Assembly: GCA_944391815.1 (NCBI GenBank)
Contig: CALXUV010000020.1
Location: 7,081-71,080 of the forward strand
Source: an uncultured Clostridia bacterium
Lineage (GTDB): Bacteria > Bacillota > Clostridia > Oscillospirales > CAG-272
Reading direction: 5' to 3'
DNA: 64,000 nucleotides
Shown here piece after piece: positions 20,210 through 27,683 of the stretch. Position 1 is the stretch's first letter; the number at the start of each line of letters is the position of its first letter. Both the position numbers and the translations under genes were made by a program. The notes beneath the pieces are model-generated. The model did not search any database, had not been told where the DNA came from, and was given only the letters and a program-made list of their open reading frames with translations.

Positions 20210-21604
20210 TTGCAGAAAACCAAAAATCCGGATTTTACCGAAGGACCGCTTTTCGTAAGAATTTTCATGTTTGCGATCCCTCTTATTCTAACCGGAATAC
20301 TTCAGTTGCTTTACAATGCCGCAGATAATATAGTTGTCGGAAAATTTTCCGGAGATCCCAATGCTCTTGCCGCTGTCGGATGCACCGGAAGTCTCAATAA
20401 CCTTATTGTAACGTTTCTGATTTCTTTTTCAGTCGGAAGCTCAGTGGTTATTGCACAGAATTTCGGCGCAAAGAAAGAGGACGCGGTCTCCAAAGCCGTA
20501 CATACCTCTATCTCGATCGCTCTTATCGGAGGAATCGTCATTTCTGTTCTCGGTTTTTTTCTGTGCGAGCGTGTCCTGATAATGATGGGGACTAATCCCG
20601 AATTACTTCCGAAAGCAAAGCTTTATACACAGATAATCTGTATCGGAATTCCTGCCAGTGCTGTTTACAATTTCGGCGCTACGGTATTCCGGGCGATCGG
20701 CGATTCAAAAACACCTTTGATTATCCTTGCCTGTACCGGCATTGTCAATGTGGTTTTCAATCTCATCTTTGTTATTGTTTTTAATCTATCTGTCGCCGGT
20801 GTTGCCATAGCTACTATAATCTCGCAGTATCTTTCCGCTTTTGTGGTGATTTTCCTCCTTTACAGAAGTAATGAATGTTATTGTTTCCGTTTCAGAAAAC
20901 TCGGATTTTCCGTGTCTATTCTTGAAAAAATGCTGATTATCGGTATTCCTGCGGGTATTCAGGGAATTCTCTTCTCTATATCAAACGTTATCATACAGAG
21001 CGGAGTAAACACATTTCCGATCGAAGTTATTTCCGGAAACACAATCGGTGCGACAATCGAAGGTTTTACATACATTTCAATGAACAGCTTCAGCCACGCA
21101 ACCATCACTTTTGCCGGTCAGAATTTCGGTGCATTCAAATTTGACAGAGTAAAAAAAGTTCTTTTTTACGCTCTTCTTCAGGTCACCGCCGTCGGTATTT
21201 TCGTTGGTTACATGGAAATTCTTTTCGCCAGACCTCTTTCGGCACTGTTCGTCGATACAACTCAGCAAAACATACCGCTTGTAATCGACGCTGCCGCCGT
21301 CAGAATAAAAGTAATCCTCGGAACATATTTTCTCTGCGGCGTTATGGAGGTGCTTGCCGGTTATCTGCGTGCGCTCGGACGCTCCTTTACCACGATGATA
21401 TGTTCCCTTACCGGTGCGTGCCTGCTAAGAATTGTATGGGTCAAATTCATCTTCGTCCTTCCTGCCTTCAATTCTCAGACCGGACTTTATATTTCATATC
21501 CCATAACATGGCTTTTCACATGTTTGCTTCTCGCAGCTTTTGCTTTATTCACCTCAATAAAACTGTTCAGGCGTGCTAAAAAACTCAATATTCCAGAGGT
21601 TTGA
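20210..21604 (+). CDS. MATE family efflux transporter
   Basis: TTG start after GAAAGG; LQLLYNAADNIVVG, ALAAVG, GDSKTPL, GQNFGA; about 12 TM segments. Confidence 0.9.
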   Translation: MQKTKNPDFTEGPLFVRIFMFAIPLILTGILQLLYNAADNIVVGKFSGDPNALAAVGCTGSLNNLIVTFLISFSVGSSVVIAQNFGAKKEDAVSKAVHTSISIALIGGIVISVLGFFLCERVLIMMGTNPELLPKAKLYTQIICIGIPASAVYNFGATVFRAIGDSKTPLIILACTGIVNVVFNLIFVIVFNLSVAGVAIATIISQYLSAFVVIFLLYRSNECYCFRFRKLGFSVSILEKMLIIGIPAGIQGILFSISNVIIQSGVNTFPIEVISGNTIGATIEGFTYISMNSFSHATITFAGQNFGAFKFDRVKKVLFYALLQVTAVGIFVGYMEILFARPLSALFVDTTQQNIPLVIDAAAVRIKVILGTYFLCGVMEVLAGYLRALGRSFTTMICSLTGACLLRIVWVKFIFVLPAFNSQTGLYISYPITWLFTCLLLAAFALFTSIKLFRRAKKLNIPEV

Positions 21605-21605
21605 T

Positions 21606-22016
21606 ATGAATTACATTAAACTATGGCAGGATATTTCCCGTACCGCAGAAGACGATTATTATTCTCTTCCAAAAGACAGGCAAACACTTTTCAATATTAA
21701 AAGCATAGCCGATTCGGTAAGCGGCGACGGACTTAAATCGTATTATCTGAGCTACGCGGGCGCTTTTGCGGAAGACGCCGCAAATCAGCTTTATGATATC
21801 GGTCTTGACCTTGTTGCGGCAGTTATAGAGAATGCAAATTCTCTTTTTCCGGAAGGAACTCCGCCCGAAGACGACATTGAAAGAAAAGAAATTATAGATG
21901 AATGGGACGGCGACTACGACTACCTTTATGACGACTGGAATGAAACTATACTTCAAAACATGCCCGAGCTGGAAGCTGAAATTGACTCGCTTTTTGAAAA
22001 AATTTCAAATGAATGA
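21606..22016 (+). CDS. DUF4375 / DMP19-like acidic protein
   Basis: V-S-G-D-G-L-x-x-Y-Y...A..L..IG...A..I..A..LFP pattern; very Asp/Glu-rich; starts 1 nt after the MATE stop. Confidence 0.6.
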   Translation: MNYIKLWQDISRTAEDDYYSLPKDRQTLFNIKSIADSVSGDGLKSYYLSYAGAFAEDAANQLYDIGLDLVAAVIENANSLFPEGTPPEDDIERKEIIDEWDGDYDYLYDDWNETILQNMPELEAEIDSLFEKISNE

Positions 22017-22162
22017 ACTTTCGCTCAGTGCTGAAATCAGCTATTAAATCGGGTTAAAGTCAAAGTGTATGGATTAAATTTTCAAACGATTATCCTTACT
22101 TAATATTAAAAGATCTGATTGAGTTTGAAAATAAAAGCCGATTATAAATAAACTTTATTCGG

Positions 22163-22201
22163 AAATTCCCCGCCATCCACAAAAGATGGCGGGGAATTTT
22201 A
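22163..22201. terminator. Bidirectional intrinsic terminator
   Basis: AAATTCCCCGCCATC-N7-GATGGCGGGGAATTT, 15-bp stem between convergent genes. Confidence 0.85.
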
Positions 22202-22343
22202 TCTGCACCGAGTAAAAGCTCAAAAATTCAGTGAGTCTGAGACTGTTTGGTTCGGATATATCCAATCATAGTCGGTTTTTTACTGTTTTAATGTAATCTA
22301 TCGCATTGAATACTGACTTACGGGATTAATTTGTGACTTAATG

Positions 22344-23219
22344 TTATTTCTTCTGAGCTTTGCCGTCTATCTCTTCCTTTGCTTCTCTGCCCTCTCTCAA
22401 AAGTCTCACAAGCTCCGTCTTGTCTCCGTTTCTTATAGCATCTCTGTATTCGGTCAGTTTTTCTATTATGCAGTCAAGTTCAGACAACACATTTTCAGAG
22501 TTTTCAAGAAAAAGCTCGCTCCACATCTGTTCAGAAAGCCAGGCAACACGAGTAAGATCCTTATATGAACCTGCCGAAAAGCCTTTGTGTATTTTTGCCG
22601 TCGGACTTTTCACATAAGCATTTGAAACAATATGCGCAAGCTGGGAAGTAAATGCTATTATTTCATCATGTTTTCCGGCATCCGTTACCGAAACGCTACC
22701 GATTTGCAAAGGAGACAGTATTTCCTTTATGTTGCTCAGCAGTTCTATGTCATCGAATCTGTCGGGAACCACAACCATCGGCGCACCTTTGAAAAGTTCT
22801 GCGCTTGAATATTTGTATCCGGAAAGATGCTTTCCTGCCATCGGGTGCCCACCCGCAAACACAAAACCGTGCTTCGATGCGAGCTCAAACCCAACGCTGC
22901 ATATTTCGCTTTTGACGCCGCATAAATCCATAACCAGCTTATTTTTACCGAAATATTCCGCATTGTTTTTAAGGTAATTTATTGTCAGCGAAGGATAAAG
23001 CGCAATGAAAACGACATCACATACGGCAAGCTTTTCCTTAGTCAGTTTGCCGCTGACCGTACCCTCAAGCTCGGCATATCCCTGTACGACGTCGTCTTTA
23101 TCGTAGCCGTAAACCGTCACGCCGCTGTACTTTCTGTACGCCTTGGCGACAGATCCTCCGATAAGCCCGAGTCCCACAACTCCGACTGTTTTGATTTTTC
23201 CAACGTCAAGGTTATTCAT
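22344..23219 (-). CDS. tyrA: Prephenate dehydrogenase
   Basis: GLGLIGGS, DLCGVK, GGHPMAG, HDEIIAFTSQLAH, GSYKDLTRVA; ATGA overlap with aroF. Confidence 0.93.
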   Translation of the reverse strand: MNNLDVGKIKTVGVVGLGLIGGSVAKAYRKYSGVTVYGYDKDDVVQGYAELEGTVSGKLTKEKLAVCDVVFIALYPSLTINYLKNNAEYFGKNKLVMDLCGVKSEICSVGFELASKHGFVFAGGHPMAGKHLSGYKYSSAELFKGAPMVVVPDRFDDIELLSNIKEILSPLQIGSVSVTDAGKHDEIIAFTSQLAHIVSNAYVKSPTAKIHKGFSAGSYKDLTRVAWLSEQMWSELFLENSENVLSELDCIIEKLTEYRDAIRNGDKTELVRLLREGREAKEEIDGKAQKK

Positions 23220-24217
23220 TTCAAAGCCTCTTTCACTTTTCTCATTTTTTCTGCTATTTTGTCAAACTGCTCCGGTGTAACCGACTGCGCACCGTCACAA
23301 AGAGCGCAAGACGGGTTATTGTGCACCTCAATCATTACGCCGCTTGCTCCGCATGCTACTGCAGCCACAGCCATAGGTTCGACCAACCTTGAAATTCCGG
23401 TTGCGTGACTTGGATCCACTATTACCGGCAGATGAGTGAGTTCTTTGAGCACCGGAACCGCTGAAAGATCAAGGACATTGCGGGTGTAACTGTCAAAACT
23501 TCTGATTCCGCGCTCGCAAAGAATTATATTATTGTTTCCGCCTGCCATTATATATTCTGCACTCATCAGTAGTTCTTTAAGAGTCGCCGCCATCCCTCTT
23601 TTCAGCAGAATCGGCTTTCCGCATCTGCCCAGCTCTTTAAGCAGTTCGAAATTCTGCATATTCCTTGCCCCGACCTGTAATATATCGACTTCTGAAAACA
23701 GATCGATGTGATTTACATTCATTATTTCTGTAACAACCGGAAGTCCCGTCGCTTTTTTGGCTTCAAGAAGTATCCGTATTCCTTCCCCTTTCAGTCCCTG
23801 GAAATCGTACGGAGATGTTCTCGGTTTGAACGCTCCGCCTCTCAGCACGGTTGCTCCGGAATTTTTGACTTTCCTTGCTATTTCAGTCAGCTGTTCCTCG
23901 CTTTCTATCGAGCACGGACCTGCTATTACAGTAAGCGCATCACCGCCTATTTCGGTATTACCTATCTTTATCACCGTGTCGTCCGGATGAAATTTCCGGT
24001 TTGCGCTTTTAAACGGTTCGGTTATTCTTTTTACACTTTCCACCATTTCAAGACTTTCAAGAAGCTCGGCATCAACCTTGTCTGTATCCCCTATAAGCCC
24101 TATTACCGTCTGGTATTTTCCCTTTGAAACATGTACGTCAAGATTCTGCCCTTCGAGCCATTGTTTCAGACTCTCTATCTGCCTGTCAGTTACTCCCGGT
24201 TTAAGTACCGCTATCAT
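23216..24217 (-). CDS. aroF: DAHP synthase (type I-beta with N-terminal regulatory domain)
   Basis: IAGPCSIE, GGAFKPRTSPY, QVGARNMQNF, LLKRG, CERGIR, DPSHA, IEVH, CDGAQS. Confidence 0.95.
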   Translation of the reverse strand: MIAVLKPGVTDRQIESLKQWLEGQNLDVHVSKGKYQTVIGLIGDTDKVDAELLESLEMVESVKRITEPFKSANRKFHPDDTVIKIGNTEIGGDALTVIAGPCSIESEEQLTEIARKVKNSGATVLRGGAFKPRTSPYDFQGLKGEGIRILLEAKKATGLPVVTEIMNVNHIDLFSEVDILQVGARNMQNFELLKELGRCGKPILLKRGMAATLKELLMSAEYIMAGGNNNIILCERGIRSFDSYTRNVLDLSAVPVLKELTHLPVIVDPSHATGISRLVEPMAVAAVACGASGVMIEVHNNPSCALCDGAQSVTPEQFDKIAEKMRKVKEALK

Positions 24218-24231
24218 ATTTTATCCTCCGT

Positions 24232-24267
24232 AAATAAAAAATCCCACAGTGTTTTTTCACTGCGGGA
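24232..24267 (-). terminator. Attenuator terminator in the aroF-tyrA leader
   Basis: Minus strand UCCCGCAGUG-AAAAAA-CACUGUGGGA-UUUUUUAUUU directly before the aroF RBS. Confidence 0.85.
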
Positions 24268-24314
24268 CTGATTTTTTTATATCAGGTCATAGCAAAAAGC
24301 ACCATTACTTATTC

Positions 24315-24368
24315 TTATTTTAAGTAATAGCGGTAATAATATTCAGTTGCAAATCTAAGTGTAATCAT
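24315..24368 (-). CDS. Tyr-rich leader peptide MITLRFATEYYYRYYLK (putative attenuator peptide)
   Basis: 17 codons, GGGAG RBS 7 nt upstream, 5 Tyr in a 6-codon stretch; lies between promoter and terminator upstream of aroF-tyrA. Confidence 0.85.
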   Translation of the reverse strand: MITLRFATEYYYRYYLK

Positions 24369-24399
24369 ATCAGTGCTCCCGAATCCTTTTTACTCTTTT

Positions 24400-24428
24400 A
24401 ATATACCACTGTCAGTCGGTTTTGTCAA
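24400..24428 (-). promoter_or_regulatory. Sigma-A promoter of leader-aroF-tyrA
   Basis: TTGACA-N17-TATATT with TGn extension. Confidence 0.8.
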
Positions 24429-26425
24429 GTATTTTTTTCAATTCTTCTTCTGCGACCGCCAAATTCCTCAGGTGAAATTTCTCCGGCGCTCTCTATGTAT
24501 CTTTTTGCCTGAGTTGAAAAGAGCTCGTAATATTTTCCCTTAGCCGCCATCAGCTCTTTATGTGTTCCGCTTTCTATCAATTGTCCGTATTCAAGCACAA
24601 GTATCTTGTCGGCAGTAGTAGCGCTTGAAAGTCTGTGGGATACGAAAATCGATGTTTTGTCCTTTCTCAGGCTGTCGAATCTGTTGAAAATCTCCTGTTC
24701 CGCCATCGGGTCAAGCGAGGCTGTCGGCTCGTCAAGTATCAATACGTCCGATGCTGAATAAAATGCACGGGCTATCGAGAGCTTCTGCCACTGTCCTATT
24801 GAAAGCTCTATTCCGTTTTCCTCAAATATCCGCATAAGCGGAGTATCATATCCGTCCGAGAATTTTTCTATAAAGCTGTCGGCGTCACTTGCATGCGCAG
24901 CATTTTTTATTTCTTCGTCCTTCATTTCTTTCAGTATGTCTCCGAAAGCAATATTTTCCTTTGCAGTTACGGCATACTTTCCGAAATCCTGGAATATTAT
25001 CCCGAACATTCTGTACAGCGACTGCACATCATATTCCCTTATATCCCTGCCGTCAAGAAGTATTTTTCCTTTGGTCGGATCGTAAAGTCTGGTCAGCAGT
25101 TTTATCAGCGTTGTTTTTCCGGCTCCGTTAAGCCCGACAAGAACTACTGTTTCACCTGGTTCTATACGGAACGAAACGTCTTTTATTACTTCTCTTTCGG
25201 TTCCGGGATAGCTGAATGAAACGTCCTGAAATTCTATAACATGTCCCACTCCTCTTTCAACTTTTACCGGCTCGGGAAGTATGGACGTTATGGCGGTTTT
25301 GCTCTTCATAAAGACAATCATATTGTCAATAAAAAGTGTTCCCTCGTAAATGGTTGCAGTGGTTGTAATCAGTGTTGCCACTCCGCTGGATATATGGTTC
25401 AGAGCTGATACATAGAGCGAATAATTTCCTATCTGCTCGTTGCCGTTACATACCTGAAGAGCTATGTATACGTAAAGCGCACACTTGGCTGCCGCATTGA
25501 TAAGAGTAAGTATAATATGCCAGATGCCCTCTGTAATGTAAAGTTTTCTCAGTCCCCTGTAATACTTTTTGAACGTCTGGTTATACCTGTCTATAAAAAT
25601 GTCGGTAAGCGAAAACATCTTCACTTCCTTTACCATGTCTTTGTTGGTAAGGATTCCGGAATAGTAATTCATAACCCGGCGCTCTTTTGATTTTCTGCGG
25701 ACATAGTTTACATTCTTTTTTCTGTAAATGAAGTTTATTATCGCAGAAGGAACCGCAAGCACAACCATAATCAGAGGAGCAACGGAGCTTACCGCTATAA
25801 GAACAACGATAAACGACACCATACTTATAATTGTACTGAAAATATTGAACGTTGCATCAAGGATCTGTATCGGGCGTGTTCCCGCTTCACGGTTGGCATT
25901 TTCCAGTTTTTCATAAAACTCAGCCGTATCAAAGCTTGCCATATCAATCTCTTTGGTCTTGTGCATGATTTTGAGTTTGATGTGGTTTACCACAAGCTCA
26001 CCGTATATCCTTTTCAGAACGGTGTTTATATTGTTCACCAGACTTTGCAGAAATGTAAAACCGAACTGAAGGACCAGCCAGAAAACTATAGCACGGCAGG
26101 CTTCGTTTTCCAGCATAACGTTTATCTGTTCGCTCACCGTCAGACTTCCGTCTATAACGGAAAAAGACCGCATCAGCGCATTAAGTATATTTGCCGTAAT
26201 GGTGGCACCCAGAACCGGCATTACGCCGTTGAATACTGACATGAAAATCATCACAAGAAGTATCCACGGTCCTGTCTGCCATACAAGACCGAATATGTAA
26301 AACAGCCTGTGGAAAAATTCAGACAGAAGCTTTTTCAGAAAACCCGGAACCTCTTTTATGTTTTTTGGCTTTTCGGGTTCTGCATAATTAGGTTTTGGTC
26401 CGCCCCAACCGAATCCCGGTCCCAT
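24425..26425 (-). CDS. ABC exporter, fused permease/ATPase
   Basis: N-terminal TM domain; GLNGAGKTT, LSIGQWQK, ILDEPTASLD, SHRLS. Confidence 0.92.
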   Translation of the reverse strand: MGPGFGWGGPKPNYAEPEKPKNIKEVPGFLKKLLSEFFHRLFYIFGLVWQTGPWILLVMIFMSVFNGVMPVLGATITANILNALMRSFSVIDGSLTVSEQINVMLENEACRAIVFWLVLQFGFTFLQSLVNNINTVLKRIYGELVVNHIKLKIMHKTKEIDMASFDTAEFYEKLENANREAGTRPIQILDATFNIFSTIISMVSFIVVLIAVSSVAPLIMVVLAVPSAIINFIYRKKNVNYVRRKSKERRVMNYYSGILTNKDMVKEVKMFSLTDIFIDRYNQTFKKYYRGLRKLYITEGIWHIILTLINAAAKCALYVYIALQVCNGNEQIGNYSLYVSALNHISSGVATLITTTATIYEGTLFIDNMIVFMKSKTAITSILPEPVKVERGVGHVIEFQDVSFSYPGTEREVIKDVSFRIEPGETVVLVGLNGAGKTTLIKLLTRLYDPTKGKILLDGRDIREYDVQSLYRMFGIIFQDFGKYAVTAKENIAFGDILKEMKDEEIKNAAHASDADSFIEKFSDGYDTPLMRIFEENGIELSIGQWQKLSIARAFYSASDVLILDEPTASLDPMAEQEIFNRFDSLRKDKTSIFVSHRLSSATTADKILVLEYGQLIESGTHKELMAAKGKYYELFSTQAKRYIESAGEISPEEFGGRRRRIEKNT

Positions 26426-26819
26426 TTACATGCCTCCTGTGTGTTATGATTTATTTCGTTTACATTTTCAGTTGAACCGATTTTTAATACTGTATCATCA
26501 TTTGTTTCAGATCAGCGCCAAATGAATTGAAAATTCAAACATTAATCTGTGCTGAAAACCCTGAAGCTTCGCACCGGTAACGCAAACTCAGTCAATTTCT
26601 GTTGTCCTGTAAAGCTGACAATTTATATTTATAAAGGGCAACAAACTCATTCTTGCTTTCCGGAAAAATTTAAATCCCGACATTGAAAATCGGCTCAAAA
26701 ACCGTTATATCGCACCCGTAACACGGATATCAGATATTCCTGTTTGAAAAATGCAATATTCTCAAACATAAATCAAGATAATCTTGTCAGATTGCCGCTG
26801 AATAAAACACATATGATTT

Positions 26820-27683
26820 TCAGTAACCCAAGCCTGCGATTACTTCAGCCGCAAACAATTCAAGCTCTTCGGGAAGCATGGATATTATCCCGCGCCTCTT
26901 TTCACAAAGTTTTGAAGCTTCCGCATGAAGCCATACTCCGAGCACTGCCGATTCTTCTGCACTGTAATTCTGTGCGAAAAAACCAGCTGTCATACCTGCC
27001 AGTACGTCTCCGCTTCCGCCTTTTGACAGTCCTCTGCTTGCCTGACTTGTATATAATTTACCTTCCGGCGTCGCTATATAAGTCACATAGTCTTTAAGAA
27101 CCGTCACCGTGCCGTATTTTGCAGAGAAATCAAGCGCACATCTTTCCGGCTCTGATTTTATCTTTGACATTTCAACTCCGCTAAGCCGGCAGAACTCGCC
27201 CGGATGGGGAGTGATTATACTACCTGCAAGCCTTTGTTTCATTTCAGTACTTAATGAAATGATATTTAACGCATCGGCATCGAGCACTTTCGGTTTATCA
27301 TATGAGAGGACCAAGTCTACCGCCGCTGCACTCCCGGCTTCCTGACCGAGTCCGCAACCGATAAGGTATGCGGTACAGTTTCTCTTTTCGGAAATGATAC
27401 GTCTGAGCTCAGCTTTATTTTCGATTACCTCAAACGTGCACCCCGGATGCCTTGATGCTACCGTGTTCACTACTGCTTCTTCGGCAATCAGTCTGACTAT
27501 CCCGCAGCCGGTTCTCATAGCACCGCCGATACACAGAGCCGCCGCTCCTCTGAAATTTCTGCTGCCCGCAATAACGTTAAGGGTACCGTTTGAGCCTTTA
27601 TTTGCGTTTTCAGGGAGCTTCCTTAGTATTTGACCGATAAATTCGCTGTTTATCAACTTTGAATCAAAGTGATTATCAAGCAT
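26820..27683 (-). CDS. nnrD: ADP-dependent NAD(P)H-hydrate dehydratase (YjeF-C)
   Basis: NKGSNG, AGSRNFRGAA, GCGLG, VLDADAL, ITPHPGEF, GGSGDVLAG. Confidence 0.9.
   Translation of the reverse strand: MLDNHFDSKLINSEFIGQILRKLPENANKGSNGTLNVIAGSRNFRGAAALCIGGAMRTGCGIVRLIAEEAVVNTVASRHPGCTFEVIENKAELRRIISEKRNCTAYLIGCGLGQEAGSAAAVDLVLSYDKPKVLDADALNIISLSTEMKQRLAGSIITPHPGEFCRLSGVEMSKIKSEPERCALDFSAKYGTVTVLKDYVTYIATPEGKLYTSQASRGLSKGGSGDVLAGMTAGFFAQNYSAEESAVLGVWLHAEASKLCEKRRGIISMLPEELELFAAEVIAGLGY

Follow-up and report, generated by a model that had tools for sequence, protein, structure and literature searches.

A predicted tyrosine-codon leader-peptide attenuator upstream of aroF-tyrA in an uncultured Oscillospirales bacterium and related Clostridia

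The closest described counterparts of the element studied here precede aroF, the gene for 3-deoxy-7-phosphoheptulonate (DAHP) synthase. In Corynebacterium glutamicum, the aroR leader in front of aroF contains Phe-Tyr-Phe, acts by ribosome stalling, and reportedly responds when Phe is limiting but not to how much Tyr is available (Neshat et al. 2014; accessible parts of PMC11802643 and PMC4046766). The uORFC-13-1 motif of Acholeplasma and environmental sequences (24 representatives) occurs exclusively upstream of aroF and is predicted to combine an upstream open reading frame (uORF) with Phe codons, a promoter, a ribosome-binding site, and a terminator (Brewer et al. 2021, as given in the available text of PMC8632094). 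Other leader peptides have been predicted in Firmicutes, for His in the Bacillus cereus group, the Peptostreptococcaceae, and the Erysipelotrichales (PMC9413887, in part) and for leuA in Streptococcus (PMC5314783, in part). Here, we analyze a stretch of 64,000 nucleotides (nt), hereafter called the window, from an uncultured Clostridia bacterium of the order Oscillospirales (assembly GCA_944391815.1, contig CALXUV010000020.1, positions 7,081 to 71,080 of the forward strand), in which positions 24218 to 24428 hold, on the minus strand, a candidate leader-peptide attenuator ahead of aroF and tyrA.

The enterobacterial leaders trpL, pheL, hisL, leuL, and thrL share their logic with this locus: a run of codons for the end product in a promoter-proximal reading frame, mutually exclusive 1:2, 2:3, and 3:4 hairpins (the 2:3 one putative here), and a terminator ahead of the structural genes (mechanism summarized in the accessible portions of PMC9413887 and PMC11802643). 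The original prediction for the locus, made from the bare sequence, had set this trpL-type design against the T-boxes with which Firmicutes typically control amino acid operons; the design is indeed classical, but leader peptides had already been predicted in Firmicutes. We consider it highly likely, from the sequence and its comparison with relatives, that the element is a ribosome-mediated transcription attenuator that reports charged tRNA-Tyr and controls aroF-tyrA. We hold this because a promoter, a short open reading frame (sORF) with Shine-Dalgarno sequence and ATG, an aromatic codon run, a hairpin, and a terminator are conserved together in 50 of 99 aroF loci, because the hairpin (P1) and the terminator covary, and because the same motif precedes other genes of aromatic amino acids. 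The mechanism itself is textbook; novelty lies in its specificity for Tyr, in how widely the family is spread among gut Clostridia, and in a regulon that extends beyond aroF-tyrA. A switch of this kind is also noteworthy in a phylum regarded as lacking tight transcription-translation coupling.

Elements of the leader and their conservation

All the elements listed here were confirmed in the sequence at the positions given; the roles named for the RNA regions are those that we propose.

24400..24428, minus strand: sigma-A type promoter; TTGACA at 24428-24423, 17-nt spacer, TG at 24408-24407, TATATT at 24405-24400
24376..24380, minus strand: Shine-Dalgarno sequence GGGAG, with 7-nt spacing to the ATG at 24368
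24315..24368, minus strand: leader open reading frame (ORF), 17 codons plus stop, MITLRFATEYYYRYYLK; Tyr codons at 24341-24333 and 24329-24324
24300..24332, minus strand: hairpin P1 (regions 1:2, putative anti-antiterminator), arms at 24332-24321 and 24311-24300
24281..24299, minus strand: conserved U-rich box CUUUUUGCUAUGACCUGAU, putative 5' strand of the antiterminator (region 2), adjoining the 3' end of P1
24258..24272, minus strand: region 3, AUCAG plus the 5' arm of the terminator, GUCCCGCAGUG, predicted to pair with the box or with region 4
24231..24269, minus strand: intrinsic terminator, stem 24269-24240 with 12 pairs and loop AAAAAA, then UUUUUAUUU
24225..24229, minus strand: aroF Shine-Dalgarno sequence GGAGG, ahead of the ATG at 24217
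23216..24217, minus strand: aroF, DAHP synthase type I-beta (PF00793, 3.7e-79; PF18152, 6.9e-23; NF006421, 492 bits)
22344..23219, minus strand: tyrA, prephenate dehydrogenase (PDH_N, PDH_C), its start overlapping the aroF stop by 4 nt

The leader ORF has five Tyr codons within six consecutive codons (Tyr10-12 and Tyr14-15, broken by Arg13), and its UAA stop (24317-24315) sits in the loop of P1. The 5' arm of P1, CGCUAUUACUUA (24332-24321), consists of the codons Arg13-Tyr14-Tyr15-Leu16 and pairs with UAAGUAAUGGUG (24311-24300) over 12 bp, including 2 G-U pairs; P1 folds with -10.7 kcal/mol (z -6.8), and none of 200 shuffles folded as well. The single Phe codon of the leader lies at 24353-24351, and a ribosome stalled there is too far upstream to reach P1. 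The U-rich stretch after P1 reads CUUUUUGCUAUG and is followed by a small CUGAU/AUCAG hairpin. The terminator is G+C-rich (-19.2 kcal/mol, z -6.9, 0/200 shuffles as good) and ends ∼10 nt ahead of the aroF GGAGG; the fold of the whole leader has a z score of -5.5 (0/200 shuffles). The layout is the classical one of four regions, with region 1 formed by the sORF codons, region 2 by the 3' arm of P1 plus the box, and regions 3 and 4 by the 5' and 3' arms of the terminator. Much of the original prediction is thereby borne out, namely, a TTGACA-N17-TATATT promoter at 24428-24400 (11/12 matches), a GGGAG ribosome-binding site followed by a 17-residue ORF at 24368-24315 with 5 Tyr in 6 positions plus one Phe, a 12-bp hairpin over the last Tyr codons, a strong terminator with a U-tract directly before the aroF ribosome-binding site, and downstream genes for DAHP synthase and prephenate dehydrogenase, which PF00793, PDH_N, and PDH_C confirm.

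The conservation of the leader was evaluated in two samples of aroF loci. The first comprised 41 relatives of the window's genome, of which 20 contained aroF; three loci with N-terminally cut matches were left out, and a Tyr/Phe-rich short ORF was found 150 to 250 nt ahead of aroF in 15 of the 20 readable upstream regions. The second consisted of the best 80 contigs from GenBank records with one genome per species, mostly metagenome-assembled genomes of Oscillospirales (Faecousia, Oscillospiraceae, Ruminococcaceae, and Acutalibacteraceae, with some labeled Anaerovoracaceae, Peptoniphilaceae, Christensenellaceae, and Phascolarctobacterium). Under a strict rule (ATG, Shine-Dalgarno word, 8 to 50 codons, at least 5 aromatic residues in a window of 7, within 300 nt), 38 of these 80 loci passed, whereas none of the 400 dinucleotide-shuffled sequences did, nor any of the 80 reverse complements. 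Pooling the two samples, without locus L004 and the loci with less than 150 nt of upstream sequence, gave 50 passing loci out of 99. A terminator stands behind the sORF in all 50 (19 to 60 nt past the sORF stop and 15 to 99 nt ahead of aroF), and a prephenate dehydrogenase gene comes next after aroF in 38 of them.

We then looked into the sequences of the 50 leader peptides. Their length ranges from 16 to 41 residues, the peptide outside the aromatic run is not conserved, no conserved arrest motif was seen in them, and the Tyr/Phe run is their sole conserved property. Tyr dominates the run in the window's genus (L001, 5Y/1F; L023, 5Y/3F; L002, 6Y/2F; L003, 5Y/0F; L008, 6Y/0F; L005, 5Y/1F), whereas Tyr and Phe codons are about equally frequent over all 50 leaders. 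The content of Tyr versus Phe follows no clear rule by downstream gene in this set (Y163:F154, with W5, before prephenate dehydrogenase; Y8:F14 before chorismate mutase-prephenate dehydratase; Y2:F9 at the single dehydroquinate synthase locus). The term "Tyr-sensing," proposed originally, thus fits this leader and its genus, and "Tyr/Phe-sensing" fits the wider family, in which the run is mixed.

The sORF occurs in two forms among these leaders (L001 to L103). The short form (22/50) stops in or near the P1 loop, and the long form (28/50) crosses the conserved box, often with the sequence ...GKA(C/Y)F.... In the short-form leaders, which comprise the window and 21 others, the stop codon lies at least 38 nt ahead of the terminator. 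The stop of the close relative L023 comes 4 codons later than that of the window.

Covariation was assessed on an alignment of 20 short-form leaders made with MAFFT (A2). RNAalifold found exactly two helices in it, P1 and the terminator, with compensatory changes in 14 of the 19 pairs. These pairs are formed in 91.4% of the cells, versus 32 to 53% when the 3' partners are slid by 1 to 3 columns, and 0 of 500 shuffles reached any of five covariation measures. Taken separately, P1 is paired in 91.1% of the cells, with two-sided changes in 5 of 9 pairs, and the terminator in 91.6%, with two-sided changes in 9 of 10. Looking for a conserved sORF with covarying stems upstream of aroF in relatives had been put forward as a check of the original prediction, and both were found, the sORF in the 50 loci and the covariation in P1 and the terminator.

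The promoter was conserved as well. In the window, it matches the consensus at 11 of 12 positions, has an extended -10 element (TG-n-TATATT), and ranks first of 17 promoter-like sites within 21500-27000. Its -35 hexamer (24423-24428) shares bases with the TGA stop (24427-24425) of an upstream ATP-binding cassette (ABC) exporter ORF (666 amino acids [aa], 24425-26425), which ends 56 nt ahead of the leader sORF. A scan of 21500-27000 showed no terminator after the exporter gene, so that read-through from this gene would enter the attenuator too, and the promoter scan of the same interval found no promoter-like site between the leader terminator and aroF. Among the 46 of the 50 leaders with enough upstream sequence, 36 have a promoter with at least 10 of 12 matches within 90 nt upstream of the sORF, versus 5 of 460 shuffles, and the median distance from the end of this promoter to the sORF ATG is 31 nt. 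That the promoter is kept in related leaders argues that the leader is a transcription unit of its own, not the tail of the upstream gene.

Several relatives have other arrangements upstream of aroF. In L007, only a promoter was found ahead of the gene. Six loci from Oscillibacter/Flavonifractor-like genomes, mostly with aroF-aroB (L017, L094, L095, L097, L099, and L100), have sORFs with dispersed aromatic residues, including Trp (for example, ...FSFTASWARF... and ...NRFYGLFTCSFWGAG...), which fail the 5-of-7 rule and look related; they may serve the common pathway as leaders responsive to Phe, Tyr, and Trp alike. One relative has a glmS ribozyme (95.9 bits, L011 2828-2982) close to its aroF leader, on the other strand, which we took as unrelated.

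Genes behind the leader and genomic context

P1 and the terminator were taken as the structure of a covariance model (R1) built from A2. In the window's genome, this model had one match (E 8.5e-19), the next best having an E value of 0.13. When 151 evenly sampled genomes of the order were searched, R1 found 29 matches in 28 genomes at E≤0.001, which is an underestimate given the strict filters and a model made from the short form only. An aromatic sORF (at least 5 aromatic residues in 7) is inside 24 of the 29 matches, and the gene that follows is aroF in 18 of the 24, a gene for an ABC substrate-binding protein (PF04392) in 3, and in 1 each a gene for prephenate dehydrogenase alone, a TrpB-like pyridoxal phosphate (PLP) enzyme, and a class I/II aminotransferase. 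A further match has a Trp-Trp leader (4 aromatic in 7), likewise before a TrpB-like gene, and four weak matches (E 4e-4 to 7e-4) lack a convincing sORF. One leader design before nonhomologous genes that share aromatic amino acid supply is independent support for the signal sensed.

The PF04392 binding proteins (L117, L124, and L125 in genomes G044, G028, and G143) have 6HNI as their best solved relative (E 6.7e-53). This structure is Clostridioides difficile CD0873, which binds tyrosine according to crystallography and thermal shift, and Phe and Trp are the ligands of 3LKV and 3LFT, which are related to it in structure (as reported in the accessible part of PMC6816091). One of these three genomes, G028, gave no aroF match in the search of the 41 relatives, and likely Tyr/Phe auxotrophs may put import under the same leader switch. 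At L131 and L129 (G121 and G150), the Trp-codon leaders MNASNHVAFIWWRFTVSNGKVDL and MKNANCIAKYWYFYFTQVAR precede TrpB-like PLP enzymes (NF009057, ∼680 bits). They look like a Trp-flavored variant of the Tyr/Phe leader, and the Rfam trpB motif has no match on either locus.

The two genes of the window's operon cover the DAHP step and the step from prephenate to Tyr. The aroF product carries an N-terminal ferredoxin-like regulatory domain (PF18152). In the Thermotoga-type enzyme, this domain has a role in allosteric feedback, and the Pfam match, which is the evidence here, suggests that it probably adds such feedback to the window's enzyme. No candidate regulator gene was found beside the operon. 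Downstream of tyrA, on the same strand, lies a 111-aa ORF with a TTG start (21621-21956, minus strand) and no Pfam match at E≤0.001, and the scan of 21500-27000 found no terminator after tyrA.

A second DAHP synthase, of the AroF/G/H type (TIGR00034, 273 bits), is encoded elsewhere in the genome (G000 contig C36:8050-9078, i.e., L108 1551-2579) behind a consensus-like promoter (TTGACT-17-TATAAT) and without an sORF or terminator, so that only the aroF-tyrA isoenzyme stands under a Tyr leader. No type II DAHP synthase was found in the window's genome, which is 94.5% complete. The genome has 8 T-box matches, 6 of them over the cutoff; both modes of sensing tRNA charge would thus coexist in it. 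Scanning it for further leader candidates gave 418 sORFs with an amino acid run, of which 18 had a terminator and a downstream ORF. Four of the 17 candidates other than aroF were examined and rejected, these being before or inside a GH31 fragment and genes for DUF6512, 1-deoxy-D-xylulose-5-phosphate (DXP) synthase, and an SMC-like ATPase; candidate C9 is presumably ribosomal protein L34, judging by its sequence. In this sORF-plus-terminator scan, with 4 of the 17 other candidates checked, no other convincing amino acid leader was seen.

Proposed mechanism and alternatives

We propose that transcription starts from the promoter at 24428-24400 and that the 17-codon leader recruits a ribosome. 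Under a shortage of Tyr-tRNA, this ribosome would stall in Tyr10-12 or Tyr14-15 and cover the 5' arm of P1 (24332-24321); with Tyr10 to Tyr15 in its A site, it would cover 24341 to ∼24313 at most, including all of this arm. The 3' arm of P1 and the U-rich box would then be free while the polymerase makes region 3, and the box and the CUGAU/AUCAG hairpin would pair with the 5' arm of the terminator (UUGC:GCAG and GAC:GUC), the terminator would be blocked, and RNA polymerase would read into aroF and tyrA. When Tyr-tRNA is plentiful, the ribosome would reach the UAA and leave; in this state, or if the leader is not translated, P1 would re-form and hold region 2, the -19 kcal/mol terminator would form, and transcription would halt ∼20 nt ahead of aroF. 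We infer the stalling at the Tyr codons, the antiterminator pairing in the window, the timing with its possible pause, and the response to tyrosine.

The timing may be aided by P1 itself. The 1:2 hairpin of trpL pauses the polymerase until the first ribosome arrives. Among the related leaders, 32 of 49 have at least 4 U in 8 nt after P1 (background U fraction, 0.36), and P1 with this U run resembles a pause signal that may hold the polymerase for the first ribosome.

The antiterminator was predicted at 24299-24258, where UUGC:GCAG, GAC:GUC, and UGAU:AUCA pairings give -7.1 kcal/mol (z -2.5). In A2, a conserved box, UUUUUGCUGC or UUUGUGCUGC, directly follows P1, and the 5' arm of the terminator is unusually conserved (...GCAG(U) or ...GCACAG(A)) and complementary to the box. 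In many leaders, the codons just ahead of the aromatic run (UUUGCAGC, Phe-Ala-Ala) are complementary to the box too. The effect of a stalled ribosome was assessed in a footprint test, in which the part that a ribosome on the last aromatic codon would cover was removed and the remainder, to the end of region 3, was folded and compared with versions in which region 2 was shuffled. This test took the place of a duplex test, whose region was ill-defined, the box being inside the sORF in the 28 long-form leaders. Over the 50 loci, the native sequences folded with a mean of -17.19 versus -14.45 kcal/mol (paired Wilcoxon test, 7.5e-8), and the terminator arm was paired upstream with a value of 0.72 versus 0.56 (P = 2.2e-7), reaching at least 0.6 in 42 of 50 loci. 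Mainly on this family-level evidence, an antiterminator is likely for the window's sequence.

A number of observations weigh against the proposed attenuator. The antiterminator of the original prediction is present and has support at the family level, but it is weak in the window alone, where 5 of 200 shuffles fold as well. Folding with a stalled-ribosome constraint, another check put forward with that prediction, gave a clear effect across the family in the form of the footprint test (P ∼1e-7) but a slight one in the window itself (-8.3 versus -6.9 kcal/mol, with the arm paired at 0.64 versus 0.42). The duplex test, in which the segment between the stop codon and the beginning of the terminator was paired with the terminator's 5' arm, gave a mean of -6.90 kcal/mol, barely better than its controls (-6.12 for shuffled arms, P = 0.037; -6.68 for the arms of other loci, P = 0.29; and -5.29 for reversed arms, P = 1.5e-5), of which the reversed arms alone differed clearly. 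In one fixed column register, the box-arm helix is paired in 70.4% of the cells with mostly one-sided variation, any two-sided change is seen in 5 of 10 pairs (7 cells), and 4 columns are paired in less than half of the sequences, so that the support for the antiterminator comes mostly from conserved complementary motifs rather than from covariation. The relatives are not independent either, and all of our family statistics and P values therefore overstate significance.

Further points in the same direction concern the ribosome and the spread of the motif. The stop codon in the P1 loop, at least 16 nt ahead of the box, is poorly placed for masking: a ribosome terminating at the stop of a short-form leader would leave the box unmasked, unlike in trpL, and termination of transcription would need quick ribosome release and refolding of P1. 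Bacillota are classed at the phylum level among bacteria whose polymerase outruns the ribosomes (PMC13323073, accessible part), which would work against the mechanism. The motif is not universal, as 49 of the 99 aroF loci failed the strict sORF test. In one relative (L018 2578-2844, genome G035), a T-box (93.4 bits, cutoff 93) stands in the leader's place before aroF-aroB, apparently after an exchange of one means of sensing tRNA for another at this operon.

Among the alternatives, the one that survives best, though we judge it improbable, is an attenuator that works without a ribosome, in which a Tyr-sensing protein or RNA factor would bind the UAY triplets or P1 and the ORF would be incidental. 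TRAP-like proteins do read repeated triplets, and TRAP and PyrR are the model factors for such control. Firmicutes often use factor- or tRNA-dependent leaders, as the 8 T-box matches in the window's genome illustrate, and the uncoupling of transcription and translation ascribed to Bacillota (PMC13323073, in part) would suit such a factor. Decoding is favored, however, by the aromatic triplets being in frame with an ATG preceded by a Shine-Dalgarno sequence (38/80 loci versus 0/400 shuffles) and by the in-frame swapping of Tyr and Phe codons (UAY/UUY) in the run, which fits decoding and not a fixed binding site; the length, start, and stop of the sORF are also kept near the hairpins, and the operon has no candidate regulator gene beside it.

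It is marginally less probable still that the leader senses translation in general and that any slowing of the ribosome, by antibiotics, by stringent conditions, or at Arg13, opens the terminator. Any ribosome held over 24341-24321 would indeed free region 2, an Arg codon does interrupt the Tyr run, and drug-stalled leader peptides are common in Firmicutes (available text of PMC8632094 and PMC5314783). Yet the Tyr/Phe run is all that the peptides conserve, with no arrest motif seen among them, and the genes behind the 24 R1 matches with an aromatic sORF are without exception genes of aromatic amino acids, with no resistance gene. Finally, it is very improbable that the elements are unrelated, the hairpin being the terminator of the ABC gene or a stabilizing 5' structure, the sORF a chance occurrence or a peptide with a function of its own, and aroF having its own unregulated promoter: the ABC gene does end 56 nt ahead of the sORF with no other terminator after it, and UAU/UAC-rich stretches are not rare in a genome of 42% G+C, but there is a promoter between the ABC stop and the sORF, kept in 36 of 46 leaders, the sORF and terminator precede aroF in 50 loci with differing neighbors and recur in the same layout before other aromatic genes, the peptide outside the aromatic run varies freely (16 to 41 residues), and no promoter-like site separates the terminator from aroF.

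Beyond the Tyr attenuator of the window, we tentatively raise the possibility, to which we give rather less than even credence, of a large family of Tyr/Phe attenuators, absent from Rfam, in Oscillospirales and neighboring Clostridia. Its regulon would join synthesis (aroF-tyrA, tyrA, aminotransferase, and TrpB-like enzyme) with import (CD0873-like Tyr-binding ABC transporters), and a pause at P1 and the U run would await the ribosome despite runaway transcription. Should the attenuator reading of the window be right, a common group of gut Clostridia would control the entry into the shikimate pathway and the tyrosine branch via the ribosome, not via T-boxes or repressors. For a leader peptide to act as an attenuator, the first ribosome must not fall behind the polymerase, and the conservation of this type of control in Bacillota is directly relevant to how widespread runaway transcription is; the leaders, if the family reading is true, would lend themselves naturally as testable reporters of how closely transcription and translation are coupled locally in Clostridia. 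There are practical sides as well. Gene callers miss the 17-codon ORF, and Rfam misses the RNA; with a model made from the ∼50 leaders, one could predict, across thousands of gut genomes, how aroF-tyrA is regulated and where Tyr or Phe auxotrophy is combined with control of import. For engineering, the attenuator would be an obvious site to remove in order to raise aromatic amino acid output in such organisms.

Comparison with known systems and catalogs

On the window's leader, the Rfam models Thr_leader (RF00506, 29.4 bits versus a cutoff of 55) and trpB motif (RF04312, 31.5 versus 59) both stayed under the gathering threshold, with alignments that rest on the terminator and an A/U-rich hairpin. 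NsiR1 and SQ2397, the other Rfam matches in the region, were sub-threshold only, and no Trp, Phe, or His leader match was obtained there. The related leaders gave no Rfam match at gathering on 19 loci and none at E≤0.01 on 10 further loci. The full-text literature, with subscription papers on Gram-positive aromatic regulons lying outside the search, yielded no description of a Tyr leader peptide in Clostridia, in agreement with the original prediction, whose author knew of no characterized one.

The classical enterobacterial leaders have no sequence or Rfam relation to the leader of the window, to which the Tyr specificity and the Clostridia host are particular. They also differ in the position of the stop codon, which the window has in the loop of 1:2, well away from the strand that would engage in 2:3. 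T-boxes (RF00230) perform the same task, as the charged versus uncharged state of a tRNA opens a terminator before amino acid genes. A T-box, however, reads the tRNA directly and without a ribosome, and the window's leader, at ∼170 nt, is shorter than the 219-position T-box model; this model had no match at E≤10 in 23700-24900, as expected from the earlier statement that no T-box motif is visible here.

The His and leuA leaders of Firmicutes follow the classical design, including in Clostridia, and are described as lineage-specific and unrelated in sequence to proteobacterial leaders. Unlike the leader of the window, they serve other amino acids, and in the portions of the sources available none is aromatic and none is from Oscillospirales. 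The uORFC-13-1 motif resembles the window's case in its host, a Firmicutes-related lineage, and is set apart, by its description, by a U run that codes for Phe and not for Tyr. The aroR leader of C. glutamicum is the only experimentally studied aroF leader that we found in our literature search, within the parts of the sources accessible, and is likewise an aromatic-codon leader peptide, through which ribosome stalling governs a DAHP synthase operon. This leader is actinobacterial and was compared by its description; the window's leader has 5 Tyr and no Phe in the hairpin region, and its operon includes tyrA.

In Escherichia coli, aroF-tyrA is a Tyr-dedicated isoenzyme operon under TyrR, a DNA-binding repressor, and its DAHP synthase is of type I-alpha. 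Where E. coli has the TyrR repressor and the I-alpha enzyme, the window has a predicted leader-peptide readout and a I-beta enzyme. An attenuation-like control of the E. coli operon, sensing Tyr-tRNA, was hypothesized by Camakaris et al. in 1980 (cited in the accessible parts of PMC8632094 and PMC2659441). The window and E. coli have the same two genes in the same order, and in both a second DAHP synthase is encoded elsewhere in the genome.

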